Part shown: piece after piece, positions 2,271 through 26,523 of the stretch
Numbering within the stretch: position 1 is the stretch's first letter
Layout of the letters: every line of letters begins with the position of its first letter
Source: Escherichia coli
Lineage (GTDB): Bacteria; Pseudomonadota; Gammaproteobacteria; Enterobacterales; Enterobacteriaceae
Direction: 5' to 3' (one strand)
Assembly: GCF_046105845.1 (NCBI RefSeq)
Contig: NZ_CP151004.1
DNA: 64,000 nucleotides
The notes under the pieces: model-generated
Databases searched by the model: none
What the model was told of the DNA's origin: nothing
What the model saw: the letters and a program-made list of their open reading frames with translations, nothing else
Position numbers and translations under genes: made by a program

Positions 2271-2426
2271 CGTCCCTAAAATAACCACTCAGTTATTTAC
2301 CTTACTTTACGCGCGCGTAACTCTGGCAACATCACTGCAGGATAGCGGTCAATTTACCTCCTCAAACGCAACGCAAACCTAGAACGGCTTCGGCCAACTA
2401 TTAATCAATACATGCCAGGTTTTACT

Positions 2427-6944: not shown

Positions 6945-9900
6945 ATGATGAATAAATCCAACTTCGAATTCCTGAAGGGCGTCAACGACTTCACTTATGC
7001 CATCGCCTGTGCGGCGGAAAATAACTACCCGGATGATCCCAACACGACGCTGATTAAAATGCGTATGTTTGGCGAAGCCACAGCGAAACATCTTGGTATG
7101 TTACTCAACATCCCCCCTTGTGAGAATCAACACGATCTCCTGCGCGAACTCGGCAAAATCGCCTTCGTTGATGACAACATTCTCTCTGTATTCCACAAAT
7201 TACGCCGCATTGGTAACCAGGCGGTGCACGAATATCATAACGATCTCGACGATGCCCAGATGTGCCTGCGGCTAGGCTTCCGTCTGGCTGTCTGGTACTA
7301 CCGTCTGGTCACCAAAGATTATGACTTCCCGGTGCCGGTATTTGTGTTGCCGGAACGTGGCGAAAACCTCTATCACCAGGAAGTGCTGACGCTAAAACAA
7401 CAGCTTGAACAGCAGGCGCGAGAAAAAGCGCAGACTCAGGCAGAAGTCGAAGCGCAACAGCAGAAGCTGGTTGCCCTGAACGGCTATATCGCCATTCTGG
7501 AAGGCAAACAGCAGGAAACAGAAGCGCAAACCCAGGCTCGCCTTGCGGCGCTGGAAGCACAGCTTGCCGAGAAGAACGCGGAACTGGCAAAACAGACCGA
7601 ACAGGAACGTAAGGCTTACCACAAAGAAATTACCGATCAGGCCATCAAGCGCGCACTCAACCTTAGCGAAGAAGAGAGCCGCTTCCTGATTGACGCGCAA
7701 CTGCGTAAAGCAGGCTGGCAGGCCGATAGCAAAACCCTGCGCTTCTCCAAAGGCGCACGCCCGGAACCCGGCGTCAATAAAGCCATTGCCGAATGGCCGA
7801 CCGGGAAAGATGAAACGGGTAATCAGGGCTTTGCGGATTATGTGCTGTTTGTCGGCCTCAAGCCCATCGCGGTGGTAGAGGCGAAACGTAAAAATATCGA
7901 CGTTCCCGGCAAGCTCAATGAGTCGTATCGCTACAGCAAATGCTTCGATAATGGCTTCCTGCGGGAAACCTTGCTTGAGCATTACTCGCCGGATGAAGTG
8001 CATGAAGCGGTGCCGGAGTATGAAACCAGCTGGCAGGACACCAGCGGCCAACAACGGTTTAAAATCCCCTTCTGCTACTCGACCAACGGGCGCGAATACC
8101 GCGCAGCAATGAAGACTAAAAGTGGCATCTGGTATCGCGACGTGCGTGATACCCGCAATATGTCGAAAGCCTTACCCGAGTGGCATCGCCCGGAAGAGCT
8201 GCTGGAAATGCTCGGCAGCGAACCGCAAAAACAGAATCAGTGGTTTGCCGATAACCCTGGCATGAGCGAGCTGGGCCTGCGTTATTATCAGGAAGATGCT
8301 GTCCGCGCGGTGGAAAAGGCAATCGTCAAGGGTCAACAAGAGATCCTGCTGGCGATGGCGACCGGTACCGGTAAAACCCGTACCGCAATTGCCATGATGT
8401 TCCGCCTGATCCAGTCCCAGCGTTTTAAACGCATTCTCTTCCTTGTCGATCGCCGTTCTCTTGGCGAGCAGGCGCTGGGGGCGTTTGAAGATACGCGTAT
8501 TAACGGCGACACCTTCAACAGCATTTTCGACATTAAAGGTCTGACGGATAAATTCCCGGAAGACAGCACCAAAATTCACGTTGCCACCGTACAGTCGCTG
8601 GTGAAACGCACCCTGCAATCAGATGAACCGATGCCGGTGGCCCGTTACGACTGTATCGTCGTCGATGAAGCGCATCGCGGCTATATTCTCGATAAAGAGC
8701 AGACCGAAGGCGAGCTGCAATTCCGCAGCCAGCTGGATTACGTCTCTGCCTACCGTCGCATTCTCGATCACTTCGATGCGGTAAAAATCGCCCTCACCGC
8801 CACCCCGGCGCTGCATACGGTACAGATTTTCGGCGAGCCGGTTTACCGTTATACCTACCGTACCGCGGTTATCGACGGGTTTCTGATCGACCAGGATCCG
8901 CCTATTCAGATCATCACCCGCAACGCCCAGGAGGGGGTTTATCTCGCCAAAGGCGAGCAGGTTGAGCGCATCAGCCCACAGGGGGAAGTGATCAACGACA
9001 CCCTGGAAGACGATCAGGATTTTGAGGTCGCCGACTTTAACCGTGGCCTGGTGATCCCGGCGTTTAACCGCGCCGTCTGTAACGAACTCACCAACTACCT
9101 TGATCCGACCGGGTCACAAAAAACGCTGGTCTTCTGCGTCACCAATGCCCATGCCGATATGGTGGTGGAAGAGTTGCGTACCGCGTTCAAGAAAAAGTAT
9201 CCGCAACTGGAGCACGACGCGATCATCAAGATCACCGGTGATGCCGATAAAGACGCGCGCAAAGTGCAGACCATGATCACCCGCTTCAATAAAGAGCGGC
9301 TGCCCAATATCGTGGTAACCGTCGACCTGCTGACGACCGGCGTCGATATTCCGTCGATCTGTAACATCGTGTTCCTGCGTAAAGTACGCAGCCGTATTCT
9401 GTACGAGCAGATGAAAGGCCGCGCCACGCGCTTATGCCCGGACGTGAATAAAACCAGCTTTAAGATTTTCGACTGTGTCGATATCTACAGCACGCTGGAG
9501 AGCGTCGACACCATGCGTCCGGTGGTGGTGCGTCCGAAGGTGGAACTGCAAACGCTGGTCAATGAAATTACCGATTCAGAAACCTATAAAATCACCGAAG
9601 CGGACGGCCGTAGCTTTGCCGAGCACAGCCATGAACAACTGGTGGCGAAGCTCCAGCGCATCATCGGCCTGGCCACGTTTAACCGTGATCGCAGCGAAAC
9701 GATAGATAAACAGGTGCGTCGTCTGGATGAGCTATGCCAGGACGTGGCGGGGGTGAGCTTTAACGGCTTCGCCTCGCGCCTGCGGGAAAAAGGACCGCAC
9801 TGGAGCGCCGAAGTCTTTAACAAACTGCCTGGCTTTATCGCCCGCCTGGAAAAGCTGAAAACCGACATCAATAGCCTGAATGATGCGCCGATCTTCCTCG

Positions 9901-10457
9901 ATATTGACGATGAAGTGGTGAGCGTAAAATCGCTGTACGGTGATTACGACACGCCGCAGGATTTCCTCGAAGCCTTTGACTCGCTGGTGCAACGTTCCCC
10001 GAACGCGCAACCGGCATTGCAGGCGGTGATCAATCGCCCGCGCGATCTCACCCGTAAAGGGCTGGTTGAACTCCAGGAGTGGTTTGACCGCCAGCACTTT
10101 GAGGAATCTTCCCTGCGCAAAGCGTGGAAAGAGACGCGCAATGAAGATATCGCTGCCCGGCTGATTGGACATATTCGCCGCGCTGCGGTGGGCGATGCGC
10201 TGAAACCGTTTGAGGAACGTGTCGATCACGCGCTGACGCGCATTAAGGGCGAAAACGACTGGAGCAGCGAGCAATTAAGCTGGCTCGATCGTTTAGCGCA
10301 GGCGCTGAAAGAGAAAGTGGTGCTCGACGACGATGTCTTCAAAACCGGCAACTTCCACCGTCGCGGCGGGAAGGCGATGCTGCAAAGAACCTTTGACGAT
10401 AATCTCGACAACCTGCTTGATAAATTCAGCGATTATATCTGGGACGAGCTGGCCTGA
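6945..10457 (+). CDS. hsdR: Type I restriction enzyme R subunit HsdR (EcoKI family, type IA), 1170 aa
   Basis: N-terminus MMNKSNFEFLKGVNDFTYAIACAAENNYPDDP...; PD-(D/E)XK nuclease region followed by SF2 helicase motifs (LLAMATGTGKTRTAIA Walker A, VVDEAH DEAH box). Confidence 0.95.
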   Translation: MMNKSNFEFLKGVNDFTYAIACAAENNYPDDPNTTLIKMRMFGEATAKHLGMLLNIPPCENQHDLLRELGKIAFVDDNILSVFHKLRRIGNQAVHEYHNDLDDAQMCLRLGFRLAVWYYRLVTKDYDFPVPVFVLPERGENLYHQEVLTLKQQLEQQAREKAQTQAEVEAQQQKLVALNGYIAILEGKQQETEAQTQARLAALEAQLAEKNAELAKQTEQERKAYHKEITDQAIKRALNLSEEESRFLIDAQLRKAGWQADSKTLRFSKGARPEPGVNKAIAEWPTGKDETGNQGFADYVLFVGLKPIAVVEAKRKNIDVPGKLNESYRYSKCFDNGFLRETLLEHYSPDEVHEAVPEYETSWQDTSGQQRFKIPFCYSTNGREYRAAMKTKSGIWYRDVRDTRNMSKALPEWHRPEELLEMLGSEPQKQNQWFADNPGMSELGLRYYQEDAVRAVEKAIVKGQQEILLAMATGTGKTRTAIAMMFRLIQSQRFKRILFLVDRRSLGEQALGAFEDTRINGDTFNSIFDIKGLTDKFPEDSTKIHVATVQSLVKRTLQSDEPMPVARYDCIVVDEAHRGYILDKEQTEGELQFRSQLDYVSAYRRILDHFDAVKIALTATPALHTVQIFGEPVYRYTYRTAVIDGFLIDQDPPIQIITRNAQEGVYLAKGEQVERISPQGEVINDTLEDDQDFEVADFNRGLVIPAFNRAVCNELTNYLDPTGSQKTLVFCVTNAHADMVVEELRTAFKKKYPQLEHDAIIKITGDADKDARKVQTMITRFNKERLPNIVVTVDLLTTGVDIPSICNIVFLRKVRSRILYEQMKGRATRLCPDVNKTSFKIFDCVDIYSTLESVDTMRPVVVRPKVELQTLVNEITDSETYKITEADGRSFAEHSHEQLVAKLQRIIGLATFNRDRSETIDKQVRRLDELCQDVAGVSFNGFASRLREKGPHWSAEVFNKLPGFIARLEKLKTDINSLNDAPIFLDIDDEVVSVKSLYGDYDTPQDFLEAFDSLVQRSPNAQPALQAVINRPRDLTRKGLVELQEWFDRQHFEESSLRKAWKETRNEDIAARLIGHIRRAAVGDALKPFEERVDHALTRIKGENDWSSEQLSWLDRLAQALKEKVVLDDDVFKTGNFHRRGGKAMLQRTFDDNLDNLLDKFSDYIWDELA

Positions 10458-10658
10458 CACGTATACACTTCATCCTTCAGGCTACCTCTGCGTTGGCTGC
10501 GCTCGTTCACCCCGGTCACGTACTTCTGTACGCTCCCGGGGATTCACTCACTTGCCGCCTTGATGCAACCTGAATGATTTTGTGTATATTACCCTCGGCA
10601 ATTTCTTTTTCTGCGGCCCCAAACAATGCGGGCCGCTGCTTAATTTACGGAACTCACA

Positions 10659-12248
10659 ATGAACAATAACGATCTGGTCGCGAAGCTGTGGAAGCTGTGC
10701 GACAACCTGCGCGATGGCGGCGTTTCCTATCAAAACTACGTCAATGAACTCGCCTCGCTGCTGTTTTTGAAAATGTGTAAAGAGACCGGACAGGAAGCGG
10801 AGTACCTGCCGGTAGGCTACCGCTGGGATGATCTGAAATCCCGTATCGGTCAGGAGCAGTTGCAGTTCTACCGTAACCTGCTGGTACATCTGGGCGCCGA
10901 CAATCAAAAGCTGGTGCAGGCGGTGTTCCAGAACGTCAACACCACCATTACCCAGCCGAAACAGTTGACCGAGCTGGTCAGCAATATGGATTCACTGGAC
11001 TGGTACAACGGTGCGCACGGTAAGTCGCGCGATGACTTCGGCGATATGTACGAAGGGCTGCTGCAGAAGAACGCCAACGAAACCAAGTCTGGCGCGGGCC
11101 AGTACTTCACCCCGCGTCCGCTGATTAAAACCATTATTCATCTGCTGAAACCGCAGCCGCGTGAAGTGGTGCAGGATCCGGCAGCAGGTACGGCGGGCTT
11201 TTTGATTGAAGCCGACCGCTACGTTAAGTCGCAAACCAATGATCTGGACGACCTTGATGGCGACACGCAGGATTTCCAGATCCACCGCGCCTTTATCGGC
11301 CTCGAACTGGTGCCCGGCACCCGTCGTCTGGCGCTGATGAACTGCCTGCTACACGATATTGAAGGCAACCTCGACCACGGCGGCGCAATCCGTCTGGGCA
11401 ACACCCTGGGTAGCGACGGTGAAAATCTGCCGAAGGCGCATATTGTCGCCACTAACCCGCCGTTTGGCAGCGCCGCAGGCACCAACATTACCCGCACCTT
11501 TGTCCACCCGACCAGCAACAAACAGTTGTGCTTTATGCAGCATATTATCGAAACGCTGCATCCCGGCGGTCGTGCGGCGGTAGTGGTGCCAGATAACGTG
11601 CTGTTTGAAGGCGGCAAAGGCACCGACATCCGTCGTGACCTGATGGATAAGTGTCATCTGCATACCATCCTGCGTCTGCCGACCGGTATTTTTTACGCTC
11701 AGGGCGTGAAAACTAACGTGCTGTTCTTTACCAAAGGGACGGTGGCGAACCCGCATCAGGATAAGAACTGCACCGATGATGTGTGGGTGTACGACCTGCG
11801 TACCAATATGCCGAGCTTCGGCAAGCGCACGCCGTTTACCGACGAGCATTTGCAGCCGTTTGAGCGCGTGTATGGCGAAGATCCCCACGGTTTAAGCCCG
11901 CGCACTGAAGGTGAATGGAGTTTTAACGCCGAAGAGACGGAAGTTGCCGACAGCGAAGAGAACAAAAACACCGATCAGCATCTGGCTACCAGCCGCTGGC
12001 GCAAGTTCAGCCGCGAGTGGATCCGCACCGCGAAATCCGATTCGCTGGATATCTCCTGGCTGAAAGATAAAGACAGTATTGATGCCGACAACCTGCCGGA
12101 GCCGGATGTATTAGCGGCAGAAGCGATGGGTGAACTGGTGCAGGCGCTGGGCGAACTGGATGCGCTGATGCGTGAACTGGGGGCGAGCGATGAGGCCGAT
12201 TTGCAGCGTCAGTTGCTGGAAGAAGCATTTGGTGGGGTGAAGGAATGA
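10659..12248 (+). CDS. hsdM: Type I restriction-modification N6-adenine DNA methyltransferase subunit HsdM (529 aa)
   Basis: MNNNDLVAKLWKLCDNLRDGGVSYQNYVNELASLLFLKM...; contains the NPPF catalytic motif (ATNPPFGSA) and an AdoMet-binding region. Confidence 0.95.
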   Translation: MNNNDLVAKLWKLCDNLRDGGVSYQNYVNELASLLFLKMCKETGQEAEYLPVGYRWDDLKSRIGQEQLQFYRNLLVHLGADNQKLVQAVFQNVNTTITQPKQLTELVSNMDSLDWYNGAHGKSRDDFGDMYEGLLQKNANETKSGAGQYFTPRPLIKTIIHLLKPQPREVVQDPAAGTAGFLIEADRYVKSQTNDLDDLDGDTQDFQIHRAFIGLELVPGTRRLALMNCLLHDIEGNLDHGGAIRLGNTLGSDGENLPKAHIVATNPPFGSAAGTNITRTFVHPTSNKQLCFMQHIIETLHPGGRAAVVVPDNVLFEGGKGTDIRRDLMDKCHLHTILRLPTGIFYAQGVKTNVLFFTKGTVANPHQDKNCTDDVWVYDLRTNMPSFGKRTPFTDEHLQPFERVYGEDPHGLSPRTEGEWSFNAEETEVADSEENKNTDQHLATSRWRKFSREWIRTAKSDSLDISWLKDKDSIDADNLPEPDVLAAEAMGELVQALGELDALMRELGASDEADLQRQLLEEAFGGVKE

Positions 12249-13615
12249 GTGCGGAGAAATTGCCGGAGGGGTGGGTTGAGTGTGAATTATCCGAACTCGG
12301 TAACATTGTTACAGGGAAAACTCCCAGTACCAAGGAGCCTTCCAATTTTGGAGGCAGCATTCCTTTCATTAAACCAGGCGATCTTGATCTCGGTGGCTAT
12401 ATCATGAATACCGCCGATACTCTGACGGAGAAAGGGTTATCTCTTGTCCCCACTCTTCCTGCCAATTCAGTCGTTGTGACGTGTATTGGAAATTTAGGAA
12501 AAGTTGGAATTACCGCTAAAAAATCAGCATCTAATCAACAAATAAATGCATTGATCCCGTCAGAAAAGCTAAATGTAAAATTTGTTTATTACCAAATTTT
12601 AACATTAAAACCATGGTTAGAGTCTCAATCAGCAGCTACTACAATTGCGATTGTGAACAAGAGCAAATTTTCTCAGGCACCATTTAAATTCCCGTCGCTT
12701 GCCGAACAAAAAATCATCACTGAAAAACTCGATACGCTGCTGGCGCAGGTAGACAGCACCAAAGCACGTCTTGAGCAAATCCCACAAATCCTGAATCGTT
12801 TTCGTCAGGCTATTCTAGCTAATGCTGTGGAAGGAAAATTGACCGACGAATGGCGAGCCGGAAAATGTTATATTACAGAAATCAAAAAAATATCTGATAT
12901 TATTCAGAATGCTCAAGTCGGATTAGTTCGTTCAGCTTCAGATCAAAGCGAAATATGCACTCAAAAAATGAGAACGCCTTATATAAAAATGAATAACATT
13001 CACAATGTTCTCGGAACAAATTTAGAAAAACTCGCTTATGTCAACTGTGATAGCTATGAACTGGAAAAATATAGATTAAAAAATGGAGATTGGCTCTTTA
13101 ATACACGAAATAGTTATGAGTTAGTTGGTAAATCCTGTGTCTGGAATGGATGTAGCAATGCTGTATATAATAATAATATATTAAGAGTTAGACTAAAAGA
13201 AAACTACAATTCTGTTTTTTTAGATTATTGGTTTCACTCGTTCTATGGAGTGAGCATGCTTAATAGTATTAAATCCGCAACAACAAATGTTGCTGCGATA
13301 TATCAGAAAGAACTCTTAAGTAAAAGTGTTCCATTCCCCCCCCTTCCCGAACAAGCCGAGATTGTTCGCCGCGTCGAACAACTCTTCGCCTACGCCGACA
13401 CCATAGAAAAACAGGTCAACAACGCCTTAGCCCGCGTTAACAACCTGACGCAATCCATCCTGGCAAAAGCGTTCCGTGGTGAACTCACCGCCCAGTGGCG
13501 GGCCGAAAACCCGGATTTAATCAGCGGAGAAAACAGCGCCGCCGCGTTGCTGGAAAAAATCAAAGCTGAACGCGCAGCCAGCGGGGGTAAAAAAGCCTCG
13601 CGTAAAAAATCCTGA
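12245..13615 (+). CDS. hsdS: Type I restriction-modification specificity subunit HsdS (456 aa) with divergent AT-rich target-recognition domains
   Basis: ATGA start/stop overlap with hsdM. The conserved central (LAEQKIITEKLDTLLAQVDSTKARLEQIPQIL) and C-terminal (LPEQAEIVRRVEQLFAYADTIEKQVNNALARVNNLTQSILAKAFRGELTAQWR) regions frame two variable segments of visibly lower GC content. Confidence 0.9.
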   Translation: MSAEKLPEGWVECELSELGNIVTGKTPSTKEPSNFGGSIPFIKPGDLDLGGYIMNTADTLTEKGLSLVPTLPANSVVVTCIGNLGKVGITAKKSASNQQINALIPSEKLNVKFVYYQILTLKPWLESQSAATTIAIVNKSKFSQAPFKFPSLAEQKIITEKLDTLLAQVDSTKARLEQIPQILNRFRQAILANAVEGKLTDEWRAGKCYITEIKKISDIIQNAQVGLVRSASDQSEICTQKMRTPYIKMNNIHNVLGTNLEKLAYVNCDSYELEKYRLKNGDWLFNTRNSYELVGKSCVWNGCSNAVYNNNILRVRLKENYNSVFLDYWFHSFYGVSMLNSIKSATTNVAAIYQKELLSKSVPFPPLPEQAEIVRRVEQLFAYADTIEKQVNNALARVNNLTQSILAKAFRGELTAQWRAENPDLISGENSAAALLEKIKAERAASGGKKASRKKS

Positions 13616-13627
13616 TCATTATTTTCT

Positions 13628-13655
13628 GGCGCACCTTTCCGGTGCGCTTTTTATT
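13628..13655 (+). terminator. Rho-independent terminator after hsdS
   Basis: Hairpin GGCGCACC-TTTCC-GGTGCGC followed by TTTTTATT. Confidence 0.6.
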
Positions 13656-13749
13656 ATTTTACGCCAATCATAACTCACGCAAATATATTTAAATCATTCC
13701 AGAAATTGCCTATTTTATTCTATTTTTAGCTGGACTTTCCCTGTATTTA

Positions 13750-13765
13750 CTGATGATATATCCAG
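13750..13765 (+). promoter_or_regulatory. Putative LexA box (SOS operator) in the symE promoter
   Basis: CTGATGATATATCCAG against the consensus CTGT-N8-ACAG (2 mismatches), about 90 bp upstream of the symE start. symE is a known SOS-induced gene. Confidence 0.4.
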
Positions 13766-13771
13766 GTATTT

Positions 13772-13848
13772 AGCGCGGTGCGGATGTGCGCCAACACACC
13801 CGCACCGCTCATCACAATCACTATTCCAGGAGAATAGCAGTTATGACT
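13772..13848 (-). ncRNA. symR: Probable SymR antisense sRNA overlapping the symE 5' UTR, RBS and start codon (coordinates approximate)
   Basis: Placed from established knowledge of the symE/SymR arrangement (a ~77-nt cis-antisense RNA covering the symE translation initiation region). The inverted repeat GCGGTGCGG...CCGCACCGC at 13776..13809 lies within it. Exact ends are not determinable from sequence alone. Confidence 0.35.
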
Positions 13849-14184
13849 GACACGCATTTTATTGCACAACCGTTCGAAGCAGAAGTCTCCCCGGCAAATA
13901 ACCGTCAATTAACCGTGAGTTATGCGAGCCGCTACCCGGATTACAGCCGTATTCCCGCCATCACCCTGAAAGGTCAGTGGCTGGAAGCCGCCGGTTTTGC
14001 CACCGGCACGGCGGTAGATGTCAAAGTGATGGAAGGCTGTATTGTCCTCACCGCCCAACCCCCCGCCGCTGAAGAGAGCGAACTGATGCAGTCGCTGCGC
14101 CAGGTGTGCAAACTGTCGGCGCGTAAACAAAAGCAGGTGCAGGCGTTTATTGGAGTGATTGCCGGTAAACAGAAAGTCGCGTAA
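13843..14184 (+). CDS. symE: SOS-induced toxin-like protein SymE (113 aa; AbrB/SpoVT-fold endoribonuclease-like)
   Basis: [52 protein letters not shown]..., with AGGAG RBS upstream of the ATG at 13843. The ORF track start at 13786 is an upstream in-frame extension. Confidence 0.85.
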
Positions 14185-14345
14185 CAGCGTTTACTCCCGG
14201 TTAACCACCGGGAGCCTTCCACTGACTCAATAGAAACTTTCCCCCTCAGTAAATATTTACCTGCCTGATTGTGCAGTAAAAATCTATTGTTTCAGTACGT
14301 TGCGAAAGCGATAATAGAGGCTTAGCAATGAGGAAGGCACATCTT

Positions 14346-15725
14346 ATGGAATCAATTCAAGCCTGGATTGAAAAATTTATTGAGCAAGCACAGCAACAAA
14401 GTTCGCAATCCACTAAAGATTATCCAACGTCTTACCGTAACCTGCGAGTAAAAGTGAGTTTCGGTTATGGCAATTTTACATCTATTCCCTGGTTTGCATT
14501 TCTTGGAGAAGGTCAGGAAGTTTCTAACGGTATATATCCCGTTATTCTCTATTATAAAGATTTTGATGAGTTGGTTTTGGCTTATGGTATAAGTGACACG
14601 AATAAACCACATGCACAATGGCACTTTTCTTCTGACATACCTAAAACAATCGCAGAGTATTTCCAGGCAACTTCAGGTGTATATCCTAAAAAATACGGAC
14701 AGTCCTATTACGCCTGTTCCCAAAAAGTCTCACAGGGTCTTGATTATACCCGGCTTGCCTCCATGCTGGACAACATAATCAACGACTATAAATTAATATT
14801 TAATTCTGGCAAGAGTGTTATTCCACCTATGTCAAAAACTGAATCATACTGTCTGGAAGATGCGTTAAATGATTTGTTTATCCCTGAAACCACAATAGAG
14901 ACGATACTCAAACGATTAACCATCAAAAAAAATATTATCCTCCAGGGGCCGCCCGGCGTTGGAAAAACCTTTGTTGCACGCCGTCTGGCTTACTTGCTGA
15001 CAGGAGAAAAGGCTCCGCAACGCGTCAATATGGTTCAGTTCCATCAATCTTATAGCTATGAGGATTTTATACAGGGCTATCGTCCGAATGGTGTCGGCTT
15101 CCGACGTAAAGACGGTATATTTTACAATTTTTGTCAGCAAGCTAAAGAGCAGCCAGAGAAAAAGTATGTTTTTATTATAGATGAAATTAATCGTGCCAAT
15201 CTCAGTAAAGTATTTGGCGAAGTGATGATGTTAATGGAACATGATAAACGAGGTGAAAACTGGTCTGTTCCCTTAACCTACTCCGAAAACGATGAAGAAC
15301 GATTCTATGTCCCGGAGAATGTTTATATTATCGGTTTAATGAATACTGCCGATCGCTCTCTGGCCGTTGTTGATTATGCCCTGCGCAGACGATTTTCTTT
15401 CATAGATATTGAGCCAGGTTTTGATACACCACAGTTCCGGAATTTTTTACTGAATAAAAAAGCAGAACCTTCATTTGTTGAGTCTTTATGCCAAAAAATG
15501 AACGAGTTAAACCAGGAAATCAGCAAAGAGGCCACTATCCTTGGGAAAGGATTCCGCATTGGGCATAGTTACTTCTGCTGTGGGTTGGAAGATGGCACCT
15601 CTCCGGATACGCAATGGCTTAATGAAATTGTGATGACGGATATCGCCCCTTTACTCGAAGAATATTTCTTTGATGACCCCTATAAACAACAGAAATGGAC
15701 CAACAAATTATTAGGGGACTCATAG
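14346..15725 (+). CDS. mcrB: 5-methylcytosine-specific restriction enzyme McrB (GTPase / AAA+ DNA-binding subunit), 459 aa
   Basis: MESIQAWIEKFIEQAQQQSSQSTKDYPTSYRNLRVK..., with GPPGVGKT Walker A and a DEIN Walker B-like motif. AT-rich composition. Confidence 0.93.
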   Translation: MESIQAWIEKFIEQAQQQSSQSTKDYPTSYRNLRVKVSFGYGNFTSIPWFAFLGEGQEVSNGIYPVILYYKDFDELVLAYGISDTNKPHAQWHFSSDIPKTIAEYFQATSGVYPKKYGQSYYACSQKVSQGLDYTRLASMLDNIINDYKLIFNSGKSVIPPMSKTESYCLEDALNDLFIPETTIETILKRLTIKKNIILQGPPGVGKTFVARRLAYLLTGEKAPQRVNMVQFHQSYSYEDFIQGYRPNGVGFRRKDGIFYNFCQQAKEQPEKKYVFIIDEINRANLSKVFGEVMMLMEHDKRGENWSVPLTYSENDEERFYVPENVYIIGLMNTADRSLAVVDYALRRRFSFIDIEPGFDTPQFRNFLLNKKAEPSFVESLCQKMNELNQEISKEATILGKGFRIGHSYFCCGLEDGTSPDTQWLNEIVMTDIAPLLEEYFFDDPYKQQKWTNKLLGDS

Positions 15726-16827: not shown

Positions 16828-19800
16828 TCAGGAGGCGATCACCTCCACCAGCACATCCGTTGCCCAACTCTCTTCGCTGTTGGCGACATTCCCTTCCTTG
16901 CAGGCCTGAGCCATTTTGACTAACTGGAAAGAAACGTCATCGCGGAAATCAAAGTAATGCCATTGCGATGCAAAGTTGATGCGCCAGTAGCCCATCCCCT
17001 GATCGAAGCGGATCTTCAATACCTGACCATCATCAAAAGTCACCGTCAGTTTACGATGGTGAGGGATATCGCGCGGCGAGTCGAACACCGTCAGTTCTAC
17101 CGGCCTGCCCAGCGCAGCAGCAAACCACTGATCAGCGAAATCCTGAAAATCCGCTATGCTCATCCAGTCATGGAAAGGCCGGTTACCGGGGCGATCTTTA
17201 TCTTTAAATAGCGTATCCAGCGTCACTTCAGCGCCATCGGTCAGCTTTGTTTTTAGCGGTCTCAAAATTGATCCCAACAACGCCAGCGCAACCGGGTTTT
17301 GCAGATAGCGATCGGTATAGTGAACGCCGGTAATTCGCGTGTTATTCATCAGTGACTGCGCTTCTTCATGGTCGTTAAACAGCACGTCCCAGAAGCGTTG
17401 CCCAAACTGCGACAGTGGTCCATTCAACTGTTTGTGGATCTGAATGTCTTTGACCCGCTCGACAGCGTTGGCGGCTTTAGCCGGCAGAATAAATTCGTTC
17501 AGCTCTACCGTTTTATAGCCGAGACTACGTACCACCAGTTCGTCATTCAGGTGCCACTCCGGCCCCGGAATCGTTGCCTGCTGGCTACGAGAGGCCAGCG
17601 TCATCACGCGATCGGCAAAGGTGACCTGAGCAACGATCGGTAATTTCAAATCCTGTTCAACATGGCATAGCCGCACACCCAGCGCAGTAAATTGCGATAG
17701 TTCGTGCAACAGGTCCGGGTCATCCACTCCCGCAGGAATAACAAGATCGACCTCGACGTTGTCTTTTAGCCGATAGTTCTGAACCGCCGCGCGGAACTGA
17801 CGTGCGTATAAATCCCACTCATTGGGCGCGCCGGTCATCCACAGGGTGAGCTTTTCAGCGCCTTCGTTAATCGCCCGGCGAATCGTATCGCCAATGGCGC
17901 CAGGGCAGTAGCGGGCATCCGGCAGCGAGAATGTCTCTTCATCCGGTAAACCGATGTAATACGTGAAGTCATCGCCAAGCCAGGCCAGCGCCGCTTTGCG
18001 ATCCAGCAAATCGTGATCGTGGCGAGTCTGGGAATCAAGCAGGCATTCACTACATGCAGTCTCACAATGGCGGCAGCCTAACTGTTTCACCATTCCCTGC
18101 AATATAGCTTCAATGTGTACCGGTGCGCTGGAGGCAAAACCTGCACCACCGCTGATCACATCATAAAGCTGTACGGCTAATACCGATTGCCCATCCTCCA
18201 GTCTGACCGGACGTACAGAATAGCCGAGTTCTGCGGCGGAGATACCCAGAACGCCCGCCAGCGCCTGACGCAGAGCAACCGCCAGAGTCATGGCAACAAT
18301 CCGCCCCTCCTCTGTGTTATCTGGCAGATACTCGCCGTTTTGCGGTTTGCGCAGAACCATTTCAAAGACATCGGTGCGCGCCAGTGCGCCCAGGGTGACG
18401 TTCTTCATGAGTGCCGTCGAACCGGGGCAAATCAGACGATGATTCTGGCTATCGCGGTCCGCTTTACCCGGACGCGGTGGATAGTGAGCTTCCATGCTTT
18501 TCGGCGCATCATTTTCATTCAGCATCGACTCAGCACGGCCACAGCTCAGACACAATGCATAACCGTGTCCACCTTCCCCCAAACTTTGCTGGAAAACATG
18601 CCCATCAGCCCCAGAAGCCATATAACCCATTAGCGGGTTAGGCAACGGTACGGGCTCTGCTTTAACAAAGACCCACGCGGGGACAACCGGGACGAATTTC
18701 ATGGTTTCAATATTGTTCGTTACCGGAGCGTGTGCATCGGTGACAAACCCGGCAGGCTGCAGCACCTGACGGCGATTATCCATGATTATTTTTTCGCCGC
18801 AGGCGCTATTGGAGCAAAAGAGCATCCCGGAACTGCTCATCCCCTCTTCATAGCCAATGGTCCCGCATTTGTGACAGCGCCAGGCGCAATCCAGACGCTG
18901 GGCTTCATTGGTATCAGCATTAATGTTGTGCCAGTGCAGTGAGACACCGGCAGAGCGGAAGACACGGCCATCAAGAATGATCTCTGCTCCCGGTGCATAT
19001 TCACGAATGGCAACACCGAGGTTACGGGAAGGTAATCCTTTATAACGGGAGACGTTATCTTCACGGTCCTTTTTATCACGACTTTTTTGCGATTTTTCGC
19101 GGATATAATCTTCCATTGTGAAGTTATCAAACGTCACTACATCTGTCGGGAAACCGTATCCCGGCAAGAAGGTTCTGGCAGCTAGATCGCGCAGCAGATA
19201 CTCGCCACAGTGCCGTTTCTTCTCCAGCTCTATGCGCTTACGATAAGGCGTTTGCGGCTGCGACTCACGCTCCTGTGTCACGAGATCGCGATAAACGGAG
19301 AGCCACCGCTGCTGCAGGAAGGTGATCGCGTTGATTGTTTTATCCCGCAGATATTCGGCTCTTGCACCATGCAACGCCGTACCTTTCACCAGCCGTTCCA
19401 GCGCCGTGTCGATATCAAGAACAGGGCGTTCCAGCCAGACTTTGAAGCGTTCGCATTTTGACTGCCCGTCATCTTCACCGAAAAACCAGAGGCTATCGAG
19501 GCTGGTTTTCTCTTTATCGGTTTCGCCAATAACGTTACATAAAAAGTCGGACAGTAATAATGCATTGACGTGACGTTGCACCAGTCGGGCGGAGTTCATC
19601 GCGACCATGGGTGCCGGGATCATGGTTTCAAATGGCCAGAGCGGGTTGGCAAAAACCTGCTGGTCGTGTGGGTTACCTTTACATAGGGTGTAAGAGATCG
19701 CACGTGATTCTTTACTACGCCCGGCTCGCCCGGCGCGCTGTAAATAGTTGGCCGGATGTGGCGGTACGTTGTTCATTACCACCGCAGTAATGCCCCCGAT

Positions 19801-22800
19801 ATCAACCCCCATTTCCATGGTGGTGGAACAGTTGAGAACATTTAGTTGCCCATTCTTGAACATCTTTTCATAGCTTTGCAGACGTTCTGACGACTGCTGG
19901 GCAGAGTGCTCGGCAGTGCGATAGTAGAAACCGCCTTCCACGACACGATCGTTGATGTCTGTCCAGACGTTTTCCGACCGCAATTGTGCGATCAGCGGAT
20001 CATTGCTGACCCAGTCGCGTGCTTTTGCCAGACCCTCTGCGTAGTCTTCCTGTGAACGATCCAGCTTCCAGATTTCCGGCATGGTGACTTTCTGCGCGAC
20101 AAAAGTGTCATATTGCGCCTGGGTAAGATGCTCGAACGAAATATGGGTAGGCAGATAAGGGGTTAAGCCTTTAAAAGCCGTATCCAGGATTTTATTGGTT
20201 ACCGGGCAAATCCAGGCATCCGTGATTAATGAAAAAGTCATATGCTCTTTCGGTAAATAAAAACGGTTGCCATCGGGTTTCAGTACTGCAAGCGGTCCGG
20301 TAAGTTGGGCCCATGCTTCTTTCAGCCATGTATTGATAATATCAATAGTCGCCGTATTGACGGTTTTGAATCCAGCCCCCAGCATCAGTAACTTCGCTAA
20401 ACGATGGGATACGTTGCCATTACGAATTTGAGGCCAGCGTCTGTTCTGATTATCTTCAGGATCTTTTGATTCCGGGTTACGGACGAATTTTGATGAAAAA
20501 CGGCTACCGATCCAGTTTTTCAGCTCATCATCCAGCTGTGTGAAGTTGCTCTCACGAACGTAATGATCCAGCGTAACTTTGAGAAAATCGCGCCAGTCAT
20601 CCAGCGTTAATCCTTTTTCCTGCCAGTGCAGAGGGATCTTATGTATTTTCTCCAGCCCCAGGTAACCAACCTGAACCAGCCCTTGTGTTTCCAGGCTGTT
20701 AGTCCGTTTAGGGCGACGCATGAATTCCCGGAATAACAACATTTCCGAAAGCTTTAGAGGCCCGCCGTTTTCATTAAACACTTCAGGCTTAAGATAATGG
20801 TTATATTGCAGAACCGGGCCACGGATATCGGCTCTCTCTTTAAGCTCGTTAACCATTTCTGTCCAGGTTCGGGATACCAGAGTAATTGCAGCTTTTCCAC
20901 CGATTGCAGACTGGTAAGCCTGTTCAAGCTGCTCGGCCTGCGCTTCTGATAATTTCGCTTGATCCGGCAATCCCCAGCTTCGATATTCTTCTGCCTGCTC
21001 ACGGGCTTGCTTTACCCTGGTCGCTAATTTTTCCAGATCGGCATTAGCGTTCGGCGCCGTGGGCGTTTGCGTTCGTTGATGCCAGCTCAGAATTTCGACT
21101 ACGCTTCCGCGTAAGCGACTACGTTCTGCTTCTTGCTGCATACGCACCGCCATCCGGGCTGTCCCTTGTCGACTATCCGTAAAGGTAATGAGTCGACGTC
21201 CTCGCCCTGGCAACGAATCTGGTCCGACGCCCTCTTTGCCTTCATCACTGGCAAAGTCCTGACAATACTCAAGAACGGTAGGCACGATGTTAGTAACGTA
21301 AAATGGCCCACCTAATAATGCACGCCGAAAGGGTTGTTTTCCGCTCATGCCTCGGTAGCCACAGCCGCTGGCGCTACAAACCTGTTCAATATCATTAATA
21401 ATCAGCGGAATGCTGTCATTATTAATAACGCCAATACGGCGCGTCTGACGGTCGAGGCGTTGTAGGGTATAGCCTGTCTCGCTGGTCTCTCCTGCGGCAA
21501 TAATCAACGGAGGCTGGAAACTGTTCTCTTTTTCGACTTTTTCCTCTGTAGTGTCATGTTCAACAGGTACTTCATCCTGCAAGGAGAACTCATCGCCACC
21601 TTTATTTTCCCATTGGACAAGTTTGCCCTTTTTGTCCTGCGCCAGAAGATGAGGCTCATTACAATCATTACAGAACGCCACTTCGTATACAGGGCTTCCA
21701 CAGTCACAATTTTGTCGCTGGTTCACATACACATAGCCAAAGGGCCAGCCTTTTTCGAGCGGTGTACCGTGCTTTAATCTGCAATCTTTATCAACACAAG
21801 CCCATATTCCCTGGGTATTACGCTGGAAGATATGCGCCCTGACTTTAAGAAATGCGGGATCCTTTGCATTAGGTTGAGTCCCTGAACAGACATCGATCCA
21901 ACGCAGTACTTCCTGCTGGCTGTAATGCTGTTTTGTCAGCACGTTTAACCGCTCTGTTATCTCATCCAGCTTCATCGGATTGGGCTGTTTGACCAACATC
22001 TCACGTATGTAACGCGCTTCGGGGGAATGCGTAAGCGCATAAAAGCGATCAGGACTTATACCTTTAATTTTATTATCATTTTTATCTCTTAGATCCAGAT
22101 CGGGTATTTGCTCTATTTCGTCTAACGGAAGAGAAACGTTTTTGGATGGTTCCAGTTCAGGAATCACCCGACTTCCGTCCAGAACATCGATGCGCTCCTT
22201 CGGGATACCGGATAATTCAGAGAGAAATTTTTTCAGCTGCTTTTCGACGTCGCTGCCGGCAATGGTCGCAGAGGTCGCTACAAAGCGCACATCATCTGGC
22301 GTCACGCCAAACGCTGTCATCACACGACGCAGCTGGAGCGCCAGTTCAGCGGCCTGCGACCCGACATAGGTATGCGCTTCATCCAGTACAATCCAGCGTA
22401 GTGATTTTTGTGCTTTGGATTGCTGGATAATCGGGGCGTCGACCTGGCGAACCATCATATATTCCAGCATCGTGCCGTTGGTCACCAGAATCGGGGCAGG
22501 TTCTTCACGCATTTTTTCGCGCGAGAGCACCTCATTCGGCCTTTTTGCCTGTTCGCTTTTTACCGAAGCGTGTAGGTTTTCGGTGTTACCGTTGTAAAGG
22601 CAGTAGCGGATCCCGGTACCAAAACCACGCGTCCAGGCATCCAGACGCTCGCGCTGTGAATTAATCAGGGCGTTCAATGGATAGAGAAAAAGGGCTCGGA
22701 CACCGACCAACGGATTGTTGCCATTTTCATGCAGTTCCCGGTAAAGATCTTCCAGCACCGGTACCATAAAACATTCCGTTTTACCTGAACCCGTACCACT

Positions 22801-23172
22801 GGTTACCACCACTGAATGTTTCTTTTCCAGCAAAGCTTTCCAACTGGCTAACTGGTGTGTAAAAGGCTTCCAGTCAGCACCAAATCGGTACCGGCCATTA
22901 CTCTGATCATCCAGTGAATCAACCACTGCTTTGCTCAACAATGCGTTGCCTTCCGTCAGACTGCGCATCGTGTGGTTTGACTCCTTCCAGCCAAACATTT
23001 GCTGGAATACCGGAGAAGCAAGGAATGAGCCCGGTTTCCCACAATCAGCCCCCATTTGTTGCGCGAGATGTTCACGCAGCTGCGGGTTGGTTACGCCCAT
23101 GATACTGAGCGTTGCTTCAGTTGAACGAGACAACGATTGTTCAATAAGTGACGAAAAATAGCGTGTAGTCAT
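16828..23172 (-). CDS. druE: Giant (2114 aa) SF2 DEAH-box helicase with MrfA-type Zn-binding (DUF1998/MZB-like) Cys clusters; candidate Druantia type III DruE-like defense helicase
   Basis: Walker [10 protein letters not shown] (~22780..22800), DEAH box VLDEAHTY (~22367..22384), SAT motif, motif [10 protein letters not shown] (~19718..19741), Cys4 clusters CHKCG...CSNSACG and [11 protein letters not shown] (~18040..18880). Forms an operon with the 1112-aa gene upstream (12-bp gap). The DruE name is inference from size, architecture and locus, not a verified hit. Confidence 0.75.
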
Positions 23173-23184
23173 CCTTATTCCTTT

Positions 23185-26100
23185 TTATTTTTTAGCAACA
23201 TAACGCAACAGGCTGCACTGAAAGATGGTCTTAAACCAGCGGGAATCGAAGTCCCTGACTTGCCTCAGGAAAAATACGGCACCGGGTTTACGGTCAAATA
23301 CAGCTTCAAAAGAAGTATTTCCGCTTGCCACAGCTGCAGCGAAGACGGGTAACCAGGCCACGGAATAGCGGTGATTTGCGTCAGGATTAATACCAATCAC
23401 TGGCTTTTTTTGTGACATCATCCATTTATACAGACGCTTGCAGCCATATTCAGGCCAGCGAGCTTCACTGTGCTCACGTAAAAGCTCCTGATACCACCCG
23501 TGGACACAAGATTCAGGAATAGACGGAGGGAGATATCCGTTACTTAACCATTTCTCAATTTCATCGGCATATGTCGGGAACACGAGCCCCAGCCGTTGAA
23601 ACATATTAGTAACCAGTAATTTCTGGGTTTCCTCCGGTGCACCTTTTTGGCTCAGGAACAATTTGAAACGCTCAGATGCAGCTTTGATCTCAAAGATGGG
23701 GAAAAACTCCCATAGAATAGGGAACTCATTCTCAATACGACTCAGGTACTCTGCTGACATTTCAAATTTGAAGAGCGACATTGCCAATGCCTGCGGATGC
23801 TGCACCAGTGCACGCCATACTTCAAAGGTTGCCAGTGGTAAATACCCGAATTGATCGTACAGGCTACGCATAAATTGCCAGCCGGAATGGGCAGGATCGT
23901 TAGCCATCTGTCCGAGAACCAGTGTGATGGTATTAACTTCTGCCTGTGGATTAAAAAGCTGGGTCGCTTTCTGCAATGAGCGGATGTTGCTTTCTTCTAC
24001 CGGTAACGAAGATTCGCCACGAATGAAGCAGGGACGAAAAGCCATCTCTTCACCCGGTTTAGGGACAACCAACCACGGTCCATTTTTGTTAACGATTGAG
24101 CTCAACTCATATTCACCGACAGGCACTCCCTCGCTCATTCTAGATGCTAAGGGAATGGATTTCCTCTCGGGTTCACTTAACAGCATGATAACGGGGGAAG
24201 GAATCTGCCCAGCACGATGGTTCACTGACTGGCTGAGTAATAGTTCTTTTTCATAATCATAGCGCAGGCTGTATTTATAGCGACGAATTTGCCAGGCCAT
24301 GACCACACCTGCCCCCGTAATACGCATCTCAACAACCTGATCAATACCTGCCTCAAGTGAAATCAGGTTCTCAATATGTTCGCGAAGACTATAGAGATTC
24401 AATTCAACAGGACGATCGCTCAACGCCGTATAACACCATTCATGCCATGCCTGTAATCCACTAACGGAGCGCAAATACAACTGCAATGTATATTTTGTCG
24501 GCTCACCATTTCTGGAGAACAGAAACGCTCTGGAACCCAGCAGATCATGCAGCGTAATGTTTTTATCCAGAGGACGTCCGTTTACATCAAGAGCGAGACA
24601 GCCTTTAGCGGGAAAAGGTAACTCAATGTCGATGGGGTCAGCCGCCAAATTAGGCAGAACTTGTAATGTAATAAATGCCGGAGGTACCCCTTCCGCTTTA
24701 AGTTGTATCTCTGTTCGCCCCTCAGTACGCTTACGTGTAGCCTCCAATGTTTTATCTTTAAGTTTTGCTACACAAGGATGCTGTGTGGTGATTAAGATAG
24801 TGCCTTCATTTGCGTGCATTCCACCTTTTATCTCAATACTGAAATCAGCAGGCAAGATACCGATTTTGCGACGCAAGAGCGTTTCATTGTTACTATTACG
24901 GATAGAAAGATATTGAGCCCCCAGCATCTCTTGTATATGACATTGCTCAATTGAAATTCCGCTCAGGTAACGCGTTACATCAATGCTTTGAATATCCGGT
25001 AGTGTAGAAATGACTTTTGGTACACCAATAAATGTTTCATCTGGATGACAAACCCAGCTTGCACGCTTTCCATTTAGAGCAAACCTTCCGATGCTGATTT
25101 GTTCTCTTCCGGTGCGAATCCGATAAGTTTCATTTGCTGTAACTGTAACGTCCTGACATCCCTTCACAGGTAGTGCTTTTAGTCCTAATACGTTTACTGC
25201 GCTCGATTGGCCATCAAAACCAGCAACATTGCTATTATCCCGAGGGAGTACAATCAGAACATCGCTGCTTCGCACACTGCAAGAAGCCTGTCCCTGTAAC
25301 AGCCATTGATCTGCATCAACGATGAAGGTTAACGGCACCTCACCAATGGCAATTTCACTGTCATCAAGTTTAATGCTCCCAACAATCATCCCTCCAGCAC
25401 GAGCCACTAATGACAAACCTGCCGATGGATTTTGCCTGACAAATCTCACTTCGCTTTTACGTAATCGAACTGTTGCCTGTCTGTTTTCCAGGGAAGCATA
25501 GGCTGGCCCAAGGCCAGAGACTTCCTCACCATCTTCACAAATGGCAAGTTCAAAGCGCGTAGTTGACGGCTCGCTTGTTACAGGAAAGGAAACTTCGTCC
25601 GGAAGAGATACTATCACCCTAAGCTCATCTGGATGCTTTTCTGACCAATAGAATTGGCAACGCGTACTCTTATTTTTTTGTAGTCGAGGCTTAGCCTCTA
25701 CAGAGGCTGCGCATAGCAGTCCATTCAAAAAATGCGTTCCTGTTTCATCATCTAACGGTATTGGAAACTCGCTTCGCCAGGTAGGGTGAACCTTCTCAAG
25801 CTGTTGTACTGGTTCTTTGTGATTTATTAGGTTGTGAGTAAGTACTAAGGAATTGAGGTTATCAGCCATATGACTGATAAGTTCTACAGAGGTATCTTCG
25901 CTAAAAACAGTTGGCAGCGCTGATTTTTCTATGACAGCTCTTGCCAGCGAAAGGGCAGAAAAACCTGACTGCTTTGCTTGCTCATATTGTCCAAGGATCC
26001 TGGAGAAAACAGCCAGAAAGCGACTGTCTGATTCTTTGAGTAGCCGGAAAGGTAAACCACCTTCACTGAATAATGTTCCGAGAAAATTGCGTCGTTCAGA

Positions 26101-26523
26101 TTCATAAAATCGAATTGGGCGCAGCCAGTAATCTTCCATCCCTTTCGGTACGATAGTACCAAGCTCTGTGGCGGTGAATGAAATCCCTATTTTTTTATAT
26201 ATAGGGTCCCACGTCCATCCGCATTGCCGTTCATAATCCCTGCGGTACCACTCAGAGCAAAAAAGAACAAAACAGGCAGCAAAGTCCCTATTACATATAT
26301 TAGATTGTGATTGATCGACCGCACGGAGTAGCTGCGTTAATTGGGTATATTCATCATTGGTTGCATGATATTCATAAAGAGGACGGCCATCCGGTTGTCT
26401 CAACCCTCTAAGATTCACAAAGTTACTTAGCCAGGAAGTACATTTTACCCATGAAATGTATTCTGATTGACCCAAAGCAAGCTCCTTAGAGATAAAAGAT
26501 ACAAAAACAAAACCCCACAACAC
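23185..26523 (-). CDS. druH: Large (1096-1112 aa) protein of unknown function encoded immediately upstream of the giant helicase; candidate Druantia type III DruH-like partner
   Basis: Uninterrupted 1112-codon ORF with no recognisable catalytic motifs, co-directional and near-contiguous with the helicase gene. Start is uncertain: GTG at 26523, or TTG at 26475 preceded by a strong AAGGAG SD. An AT-rich promoter region lies upstream (26524..26970). Confidence 0.65.
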   Translation of the reverse strand: MLWGFVFVSFISKELALGQSEYISWVKCTSWLSNFVNLRGLRQPDGRPLYEYHATNDEYTQLTQLLRAVDQSQSNICNRDFAACFVLFCSEWYRRDYERQCGWTWDPIYKKIGISFTATELGTIVPKGMEDYWLRPIRFYESERRNFLGTLFSEGGLPFRLLKESDSRFLAVFSRILGQYEQAKQSGFSALSLARAVIEKSALPTVFSEDTSVELISHMADNLNSLVLTHNLINHKEPVQQLEKVHPTWRSEFPIPLDDETGTHFLNGLLCAASVEAKPRLQKNKSTRCQFYWSEKHPDELRVIVSLPDEVSFPVTSEPSTTRFELAICEDGEEVSGLGPAYASLENRQATVRLRKSEVRFVRQNPSAGLSLVARAGGMIVGSIKLDDSEIAIGEVPLTFIVDADQWLLQGQASCSVRSSDVLIVLPRDNSNVAGFDGQSSAVNVLGLKALPVKGCQDVTVTANETYRIRTGREQISIGRFALNGKRASWVCHPDETFIGVPKVISTLPDIQSIDVTRYLSGISIEQCHIQEMLGAQYLSIRNSNNETLLRRKIGILPADFSIEIKGGMHANEGTILITTQHPCVAKLKDKTLEATRKRTEGRTEIQLKAEGVPPAFITLQVLPNLAADPIDIELPFPAKGCLALDVNGRPLDKNITLHDLLGSRAFLFSRNGEPTKYTLQLYLRSVSGLQAWHEWCYTALSDRPVELNLYSLREHIENLISLEAGIDQVVEMRITGAGVVMAWQIRRYKYSLRYDYEKELLLSQSVNHRAGQIPSPVIMLLSEPERKSIPLASRMSEGVPVGEYELSSIVNKNGPWLVVPKPGEEMAFRPCFIRGESSLPVEESNIRSLQKATQLFNPQAEVNTITLVLGQMANDPAHSGWQFMRSLYDQFGYLPLATFEVWRALVQHPQALAMSLFKFEMSAEYLSRIENEFPILWEFFPIFEIKAASERFKLFLSQKGAPEETQKLLVTNMFQRLGLVFPTYADEIEKWLSNGYLPPSIPESCVHGWYQELLREHSEARWPEYGCKRLYKWMMSQKKPVIGINPDANHRYSVAWLPVFAAAVASGNTSFEAVFDRKPGAVFFLRQVRDFDSRWFKTIFQCSLLRYVAKK

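Follow-up and report, generated by a model that had tools for sequence, protein, structure and literature searches.

The symE-symR locus in an Escherichia coli immigration control region: control elements, conservation and relation to adjacent restriction systems

The segment between hsdS and mcrB in the window (the whole 64-kb stretch of E. coli DNA analysed here) carries an orthologue of the symE-symR pair of E. coli K-12, which most likely works in the same way, a reading to which we give a probability of roughly 0.93 on the basis of sequence comparison. A symE/symR module at this address had been proposed in an earlier note on the same DNA, and the proposal is borne out by a match of the symE product to Pfam SymE_toxin (PF08845; 76.8 bits against a cut-off of 29, E = 1.4e-21, residues 20-71), by a full-length match of the opposite strand to the Rfam symR family (RF01809; 93.5 bits against a gathering score of 61, E = 1.7e-18) and by 96.4% DNA identity with the K-12 locus across 723 bp, in which all control elements could be aligned. 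The K-12 locus is the founding type I toxin-antitoxin-like pair (Kawano, Aravind & Storz 2007, PMC1891008), for which mitomycin C induction, repression of translation by SymR and degradation of SymE by Lon have been described (PMC1891008). In K-12, loss of symR expression also raises SymE several-fold, and SymE is toxic when overproduced (PMC1891008). By homology to these K-12 experiments, we infer LexA binding, SOS induction, antisense repression, Lon control and toxicity for the present locus. The module was already known from the literature since 2000-2007, together with its regulator sites and its place in the genome, and is annotated in MG1655.

Layout of the locus and properties of SymE

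The immigration control region has the order hsdR-hsdM-hsdS-symE-mcrB-mcrC, with all genes on the plus strand:

6945-10457, plus strand: hsdR
10659-12248, plus strand: hsdM
12245-13615, plus strand: hsdS, upstream of symE
13628..13648, plus strand: intrinsic terminator 3' of hsdS, GGCGCACC...GGTGCGCT then TTTTTATTATT, from the terminator scan
13843-14184, plus strand: symE, ATG at 13843, stop codon at 14182-14184, 113 aa
14194..14214, plus strand: hairpin just 3' of the symE stop codon, CTCCCGGT ... ACCGGGAG, without a T-run
from 14346, plus strand: mcrB, downstream of symE
to 16771, plus strand: mcrC

The terminator that follows hsdS parts symE from hsdMS transcription and marks the boundary of its left context; because of its presence, symE can be regarded as an independent transcription unit. 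Past the symE stop codon, the segment 14185-14225 folds with -16.1 kcal/mol. The hairpin within it (14194..14214) was absent from the output of the terminator scan and is common to K-12 only; it is possibly a 3'-end or stabiliser element of symE. On the opposite strand, symR was the sole Rfam family match in the whole 64 kb, and it is missing from the NCBI PGAP annotation of the RefSeq genomes inspected.

Over 725 bases around symE, the window and E. coli HCP5S3_I2 are 100% identical, and a match to the locus was found in 2872 of 5426 complete E. coli genomes. In MG1655, symE (b4347) is overlapped in its first 6 nt by the 77-nt symR (b4625), and the geometry is equal here. The window shares with K-12 the hsdS-symE-mcrB order, a 113-aa SymE, a 77-nt antisense RNA whose 5' end lies 3 nt past the ATG, and the places of the LexA box, the Shine-Dalgarno sequence and the symR -10. 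Several differences could also be identified. SymE carries four amino-acid changes (S6F, H22Q, V23L and G26S), the base before the CAG of the LexA box is A in K-12 and C here, the symR -10 reads TAGAAT in K-12 and TAAAAT here, and SymR has three substitutions, one of which (A44G) makes its 3' stem continuous. In the surroundings, the specificity domains of hsdS are unlike those of K-12, and the neighbouring Druantia genes, which are pseudogenes in K-12, are intact in the window.

The symE reading frame is intact, and identical DNA is annotated as symE by RefSeq. Beyond the SymE_toxin domain, the product has C-terminal helices. Its AlphaFold model is of moderate confidence (mean pLDDT 67.9), with a low-confidence N-terminal tail (residues 1-12, pLDDT < 50) that includes residue 6. 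The literature places the SymE core in the AbrB/MazE fold (PMC1891008; PMC11894785). A Foldseek search of the PDB with this model gave nothing at E < 0.5; AbrB-N (1z0r and 1yfb) and MazE (2mru and 1mvf) appeared as weak local matches that were non-significant (E >= 1.3), with a TM of about 0.5 over 35-40 columns, and a PDB sequence search gave no match even at E = 10. MazE and AbrB, which have the SpoVT-AbrB swapped-hairpin DNA-binding domain, are antitoxins or transition-state regulators, whereas SymE is the growth-inhibiting partner and carries the extra C-terminal helices. With regard to activity, RNA cleavage by SymE was inferred in the 2007 work (PMC1891008), whereas Thompson et al. 2022, as summarized in a 2024 review (PMC11894785), reported a SymE without RNase activity that binds DNA non-specifically and compacts the nucleoid. 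The product names reflect both views, namely nucleoid-associated protein in the MG1655 RefSeq record and still endoribonuclease in NCBI PGAP. Thus, both the label 'toxin' and the biochemical activity of SymE are disputed in the literature.

The LexA-type box and the two promoters

A strict sigma-70 consensus scan of 13550-14400 returned no promoter on either strand, and promoters were therefore assigned by homology and conservation only. Related loci were collected by scanning one genome per species with a SymR-derived pattern, and 38 were obtained, spread over about 13 enterobacterial genera (Enterobacter, Pantoea, Kosakonia, Citrobacter, Pseudocitrobacter, Lelliottia, Silvania, Raoultella, Klebsiella, Kluyvera, Leclercia, Entomohabitans and, within Escherichia, E. 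whittamii). All 38 related SymR sequences begin with AGTCAT, the complement of the start codon. A match in E. coli strain IH5 that falls within a mosaic of gene fragments was set aside. The following elements were assigned:

13731..13736, plus strand: candidate symE -35, TGGACT, conserved as a block across the 38 aligned upstream regions
13748..13767, no strand assigned: predicted LexA operator 20-mer, TACTGATGATATATCCAGGT, with the core CTG-N10-CAG at 13750-13765
13754-13759, plus strand: candidate symE -10, TGATAT, 17-bp spacer from the -35, inside the LexA box
13766..13842, plus strand: putative symE 5' leader, start estimated from the -10
13828-13832, plus strand: symE Shine-Dalgarno sequence AGGAG, 10 nt before the ATG
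13856..13861, minus strand: candidate symR -10, TAAAAT, within symE codons 5-7, ending 7 nt before SymR +1

Two conserved blocks were seen in the upstream alignment, TGGACTT (13731-13737) and the LexA-type box, which lies 14 nt past TGGACT and contains the sole plausible -10. On this basis, the TGGACTT block probably represents the symE -35 and the LexA-type box an operator that contains the -10. In K-12, a LexA site and SOS induction have been attributed to the symE promoter (Fernandez De Henestrosa 2000, as cited in PMC1891008).

The LexA-box-like site that the earlier note had placed at 13750..13765 lies exactly there: it reads CTGATGATATATCCAG, a CTG-N10-CAG box with an A/T-rich spacer. 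The window holds 25 copies of bare CTG-N10-CAG, where 12 would be expected. We also computed a heterology index (HI; lower values are nearer to the LexA-box consensus) built from the 18 published boxes in Table 4 of PMC3009722. With an HI of 9.43, TACTGATGATATATCCAGGT was the best of the 63,981 20-mers in the window, and an equally good site was present somewhere in 52 of 300 shuffled windows; the leave-one-out HI of the 18 published boxes ranges from 0.6 to 12.8, a range that includes 9.43. Neither the bare motif count nor the HI alone establishes a LexA box. The significance of the site comes from its position in the promoter and from its conservation in related loci: of the 37 loci that could be assessed, 34 have CTG-N10-CAG at a distance of 24-30 nt from the 3' end of SymR, and this position is kept even where SymE identity is 35-60%. 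In the three exceptions a single half-site is changed; symE is truncated in one of these. CTG 13741 was also considered as part of a second box and dropped, as no CAG follows at the right distance. LexA-box sequences for yjiW and HI values for symE were not found in the literature searched.

The K-12 box, TACTGATGATATATACAGGT, which has A before CAG, gave an HI of 7.94, and the A to C change is predicted by this simple model to weaken LexA binding. C at this position is present in 7 of the 18 published boxes, and of 2252 E. coli genomes with a match to the 60-mer around the C-allele box, 634 carry this 60-mer unchanged. The C form is thus a common E. coli allele; it was the commoner one among the E. 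coli alleles sampled, and it also occurs in E. whittamii.

The candidate symR promoter lies within the coding sequence of symE. Related genera have TAGAAT, as K-12 does, or TACAAT at the -10, and such loci encode His-Ser-Ile or Asp-Cys-Ile at this point, whereas TAAAAT in the window encodes His-Phe-Ile; that is, the S6F codon turns TAGAAT into TAAAAT. The pattern TA-N-AAT is present in 38 of 39 copies, and the promoter with TAAAAT would be expected to work because this pattern is kept. A recognisable symR -35 was not found in the alignment of symR copies. In K-12, changing CATTCT to CACTCC at the symR -10 abolished SymR (PMC1891008).

These allelic features bear on the question of whether the copy in the window is functionally altered or decaying, with a leakier symE or a stronger or weaker symR, unlike K-12. 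Such a change would be in line with S6F/TAAAAT, which is unique among the 44 alleles compared and rare in the species (at most 14 of 2388 E. coli genomes), with an HI 1.5 units above that of K-12 and with the three substitutions in SymR, of which A44G removes a bulge from the 3' hairpin. However, the symE reading frame is intact and the Rfam score is well over threshold, the third position of the -10 is naturally G or C among functional-looking copies, the C allele of the LexA box is the commoner one, and residue 6 falls in the low-confidence tail of the protein model. We therefore consider a functional change in this copy quite unlikely, and a locus that works as in K-12 is the preferred reading.

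The SymR antisense RNA and the proposed control of symE

SymR and its two hairpins were mapped as follows:

13848->13772, minus strand: symR, 77-nt antisense RNA, Rfam RF01809, model positions 1-77
13811..13847, minus strand: SymR 5' hairpin, SymR nt 2-38
13775..13808, minus strand: SymR 3' hairpin, SymR nt 41-74

The 5' end of SymR is located 3 nt beyond the ATG codon of symE, and the RNA spans the first two codons, the Shine-Dalgarno sequence and nearly the whole leader; both AGGAG (13828-13832) and the ATG (13843-13845) are within its span (13772-13848). The SymR strand folds into two hairpins with a minimum free energy of -43.7 kcal/mol (z = -6.9 against shuffles). An anti-Shine-Dalgarno CUCCU (SymR nt 17-21) is found at the tip of the 5' hairpin, which suggests that pairing with symE mRNA begins at this loop. 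Among E. coli alleles, the stem of the 5' hairpin is kept and its loop varies. Seen as DNA, this hairpin is an inverted repeat with arms 13812-13826 and 13832-13846, weaker than the repeat at 13775-13808; it is a second repeat that the earlier note did not include.

The stronger inverted repeat was described in that note at 13776..13809, one base off its actual place; its arms, at 13775-13788 and 13795-13808, are 14 nt long and 93% complementary. The note had described the repeat as spanning the 5' untranslated region of symE, in keeping with antisense control by SymR. Rather than a separate control element of the mRNA, it corresponds to SymR nt 41-74, and several lines of evidence assign it to the antisense RNA. 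In the window, the 3' hairpin of SymR has 15 continuous pairs because A44 to G closes the bulge of K-12. Among 42 distinct SymR sequences, compensatory changes were observed in 9 of its 15 pairs, and 97.3% of cells were paired. Overall SymR pairing dropped from 92% to 24-50% when the partners were slid by 1-3 columns. The SymR-derived search pattern partly dictates that the 5' hairpin is invariant, so that this does not count as evidence, whereas the 3' hairpin is unconstrained by the pattern.

A reading in which this repeat (13775-13808) is a cis-acting element of the plus strand, either a hairpin or attenuator in the symE leader or a terminator of hsdS read-through, has to be weighed against these data. 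The plus strand also folds (-23.4 kcal/mol for the hairpin; -31.1 kcal/mol, z = -4.9, for the same 77-nt stretch), and SymR hairpins are necessarily mirrored in the complementary leader. The two strands differ in quality: RF01809 scores 20 bits on the plus strand against 93.5 bits on the minus strand, the 3' hairpin is paired in 97% of cells on the SymR strand against 84% on the mRNA strand (-28.8 against -23.4 kcal/mol), and overall pairing falls from 92% on the SymR strand to 75% on the mRNA strand. The fall reflects the many SymR pairs that are G-U, since minus-strand-only G-U pairs account for 268 of 1302 cells. Better pairing on the SymR strand means that the structure belongs to the antisense RNA. 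In addition, no T-run follows the repeat on either strand, a canonical hsdS terminator is located 130 nt upstream, and the K-12 RNA has been cloned and detected as a 77-nt species (PMC1891008). A cis-acting role of the repeat is thus highly improbable, and the idea that it terminates hsdS was dropped, as hsdS has its own terminator. Neither the sequence nor the terminator scan revealed a U-tract after the SymR 3' hairpin.

Taken over about 13 genera, the comparison points to selection on the LexA box, on the -10 of symR and on the 3' hairpin of SymR. By analogy with K-12, antisense control would consist in the complementarity of SymR to the leader, the Shine-Dalgarno sequence and the start codon. 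In undamaged cells, LexA on the operator at 13748-13767, over the symE -10, would keep transcription off. SymR would be made constitutively on the opposite strand from a promoter within symE codons 4-14, and this 77-nt, two-hairpin RNA, perfectly complementary to the leader, the Shine-Dalgarno sequence and the first two codons, would block translation of symE; SymE protein that is nevertheless made would be degraded by Lon. After DNA damage and LexA cleavage, symE mRNA would rise and part of it would escape SymR. SymE, a small protein described as AbrB/MazE-like, would stop growth at high levels, an effect that is now attributed to non-specific DNA binding and nucleoid compaction and that was ascribed to RNA cleavage in the older model.

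Like tisB/istR-1 and dinQ/agrB, the further E. coli pairs of a LexA-controlled type I toxin and its small RNA, symE would be an SOS-induced toxin whose translation is held by a constitutive small RNA (PMC4147584; PMC1891008). However, the toxins of those pairs are small membrane peptides, whereas SymE is a 113-aa soluble protein described as AbrB/MazE-like, and small RNAs of the istR-1/agrB type are encoded beside the toxin gene, whereas SymR is a true cis-antisense RNA opposite the symE start. A further difference from these pairs is that SymR is stable and the SymE toxin is the unstable partner (PMC1891008). In hok/sok, Sok is unstable and acts via the mok leader with RNase III cleavage; in contrast, K-12 SymR is stable, present in about 10-fold excess and independent of RNase III, and it covers the toxin's own Shine-Dalgarno sequence and AUG (PMC1891008).

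symE-symR and its restriction neighbourhood

In the earlier note, the position of the symE-symR unit (symER) inside the restriction cluster was said to fit the idea, offered as established knowledge, that symE acts as a backup when restriction is compromised. A backup or restriction-coupling role for symE was not found in the literature searched, and the comparison of loci does not call for it, as symE is found beside three unrelated type I families and symER is kept where restriction-modification (R-M) is lacking. Of 11 E. coli loci that could be interpreted, 10 have symE directly after a type I system and in its orientation, with the following families as neighbours:

IA: K-12, the window and O6:H16
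IB, EcoAI-type: O26, O157:H7 and three others
M-S-R family, taken as ID (ID-like): S4 and TUM17543

Homology between these E. coli contexts begins 10-30 nt before the -35 and stops near the symE stop codon. The downstream neighbour varies as well and may be mcrBC, gmrSD or yjiS. One symER lineage, recognised by the SymR hairpin GCGAGGCGCUCGUG, occurs with systems of all three families (IA, IB and ID), and symER lineages do not track the R-M family. In strain QL57EC, R-M has been lost, with IS1 and an 87-bp hsdS remnant left behind, and symE is retained. Among loci of other genera, a type I gene is immediately upstream of symE in 12 of 38, at least 13 loci with at least 1.5 kb of upstream sequence have no type I genes, and in Citrobacter sp. 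NCU1 and Pseudocitrobacter vendiensis symE follows yjiA with no R-M. Other neighbours of symE across the loci include AbiEi, TIR, HNH, GmrSD-N, integrase and Hcp.

Functional coupling, in which symER would serve the adjacent type I R-M system, or McrBC, as an accessory, has to be considered in view of these data. For example, it might respond to SOS signals from self-restriction when modification fails, as a second line of defence or an addiction module; we regard both the general proposal and this example as unlikely. Coupling would account for the fact that symE directly follows the last gene of an IA, IB or ID-like system, in the same orientation, in most E. coli loci, for type I adjacency in part of the loci of other genera and for the frequent defence-gene neighbours (AbiEi, TIR, HNH and GmrSD), and a review names symE-symR as one of the toxin-antitoxin systems found alongside type I families in the immigration control region (PMC12707154). 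On the other hand, the downstream neighbour is not constant, symE outlasts an IS1-associated loss of R-M and is present beside yjiA without R-M, and the occurrence of the GCGAGGCGCUCGUG lineage beside IA, IB and ID systems is what would be expected for cassette swaps beside a fixed flank. In addition, symE appears to be transcribed from a promoter of its own, and a terminator insulates it. SymE was matched by none of the PADLOC defence models, and a link with restriction has been neither proposed nor tested in the literature searched. Accordingly, symE showed neither obligatory linkage with one defence system nor recognition as a defence gene.

A more specific proposal is that the 3' placement of symER is itself functional and that symER is a damage-sensing partner of type I restriction. 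Co-oriented symER immediately 3' of type I R-M was found in Escherichia, Citrobacter, Klebsiella, Kluyvera, Raoultella and Pseudocitrobacter. If the proposal were true, double-strand breaks caused by phage attack, or by self-restriction once modification is lost, would trigger SOS and derepress symE, and the resulting nucleoid compaction would limit further cutting or halt the cell. We consider this slightly less probable still than coupling in general. Judged from the sequence comparison, the adjacency of symE to hsdS is best explained by position. On this view symER forms the stable right-hand edge of the slot of the immigration control region in which type I R-M cassettes are exchanged, and the simplest reading is that it is a self-contained unit at this cassette-exchange edge and, more generally, a resident of defence islands.

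Thus, our analysis provides a precise map of every element of the locus in the window, symR included, as well as comparative evidence from about 13 genera for selection on the LexA box, the -10 of symR and the 3' hairpin of the RNA. On present evidence, the link between symER and restriction is one of address rather than function.

symR promoter and SymR hairpin loop

At window positions 13855-13863, codons 5-7 of symE share their bases with the -10 hexamer of symR, and therefore the -10 variant sets N-terminal residues of the encoded protein. When the symR -10 was TAGAAT or TACAAT, the N-terminus of SymE contained His-Ser-Ile or Asp-Cys-Ile, respectively. The copy in the window has the rare hexamer TAAAAT, which gives His-Phe-Ile.

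In the antisense RNA itself, the 3' hairpin of SymR has the apical loop UUGGCG (nt 55-60, equivalent to window 13789-13794), whereas E. coli S4 and Enterobacter sp. Bisph1 have its exact inversion, CGCCAA, and loops resembling the inverted form were present at two further loci (L027 and L031). The inverted form looks like a flip of the hairpin loop with the stem unchanged.

Restriction and defence genes flanking symE

The following features of the neighbourhood were delimited:

12245-13615 (10630-12000 in the E. coli HCP5S3_I2 locus): hsdS, a single unbroken ORF of 456 aa with two Methylase_S domains
16828-26523, minus strand: intact type III Druantia system, adjoining mcrC

In HCP5S3_I2, the hsdS DNA is 100% identical, and RefSeq presents it as two 'incomplete' pseudogene pieces. 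This split annotation is probably an artefact resulting from an uncommon pairing of specificity domains. In E. coli QL57EC (locus 2319-3412), an IS1 and an HNH remnant occupy the place of the type I restriction-modification (R-M) system upstream of symE, and only the final 87 bp of hsdS survive; symE and its promoter were intact.

With regard to the Druantia system, DruE3 (2696.7 bits) was a full-length match of a 2114-aa protein in the window with DEAD, Helicase_C and MrfA Zn-binding Pfam domains, and DruH3 matched a 1112-aa protein (1829.3 bits). The system is intact in the window, whereas the corresponding site in K-12 contains only pseudogene fragments (a DEAD/DEAH-helicase and yjiT).

Annotation and additional copies of symE-symR

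No symR annotation could be observed in the PGAP-annotated E. coli genomes inspected (RefSeq records of L001-L006 and L046-L050), and the curated MG1655 record was the only one inspected in which the gene was annotated. The product name of symE was also inconsistent, being 'endoribonuclease' in the PGAP annotation and 'nucleoid-associated protein' in the MG1655 record.

Two MAG contigs (JAEWTL010000091.1 and JAEYGZ010000044.1) were labelled 'Bacillota bacterium'. Their hsdRMS, symE, gmrSD, yjiS and yjiA genes showed 94-100% amino-acid identity to those of the E. coli immigration control region, and both are almost certainly mis-binned enterobacterial contigs.

Some genomes contained two diverged symE-symR copies, one adjoining a type I R-M system and the other not:

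L032 and L033: Raoultella planticola, both copies on one contig
L038 and L039: Ca. Pantoea gossypiicola

Proliferation of symE-symR within genomes was noted previously (Kawano et al., PMC1891008), and these paired diverged copies fit such intragenomic proliferation.
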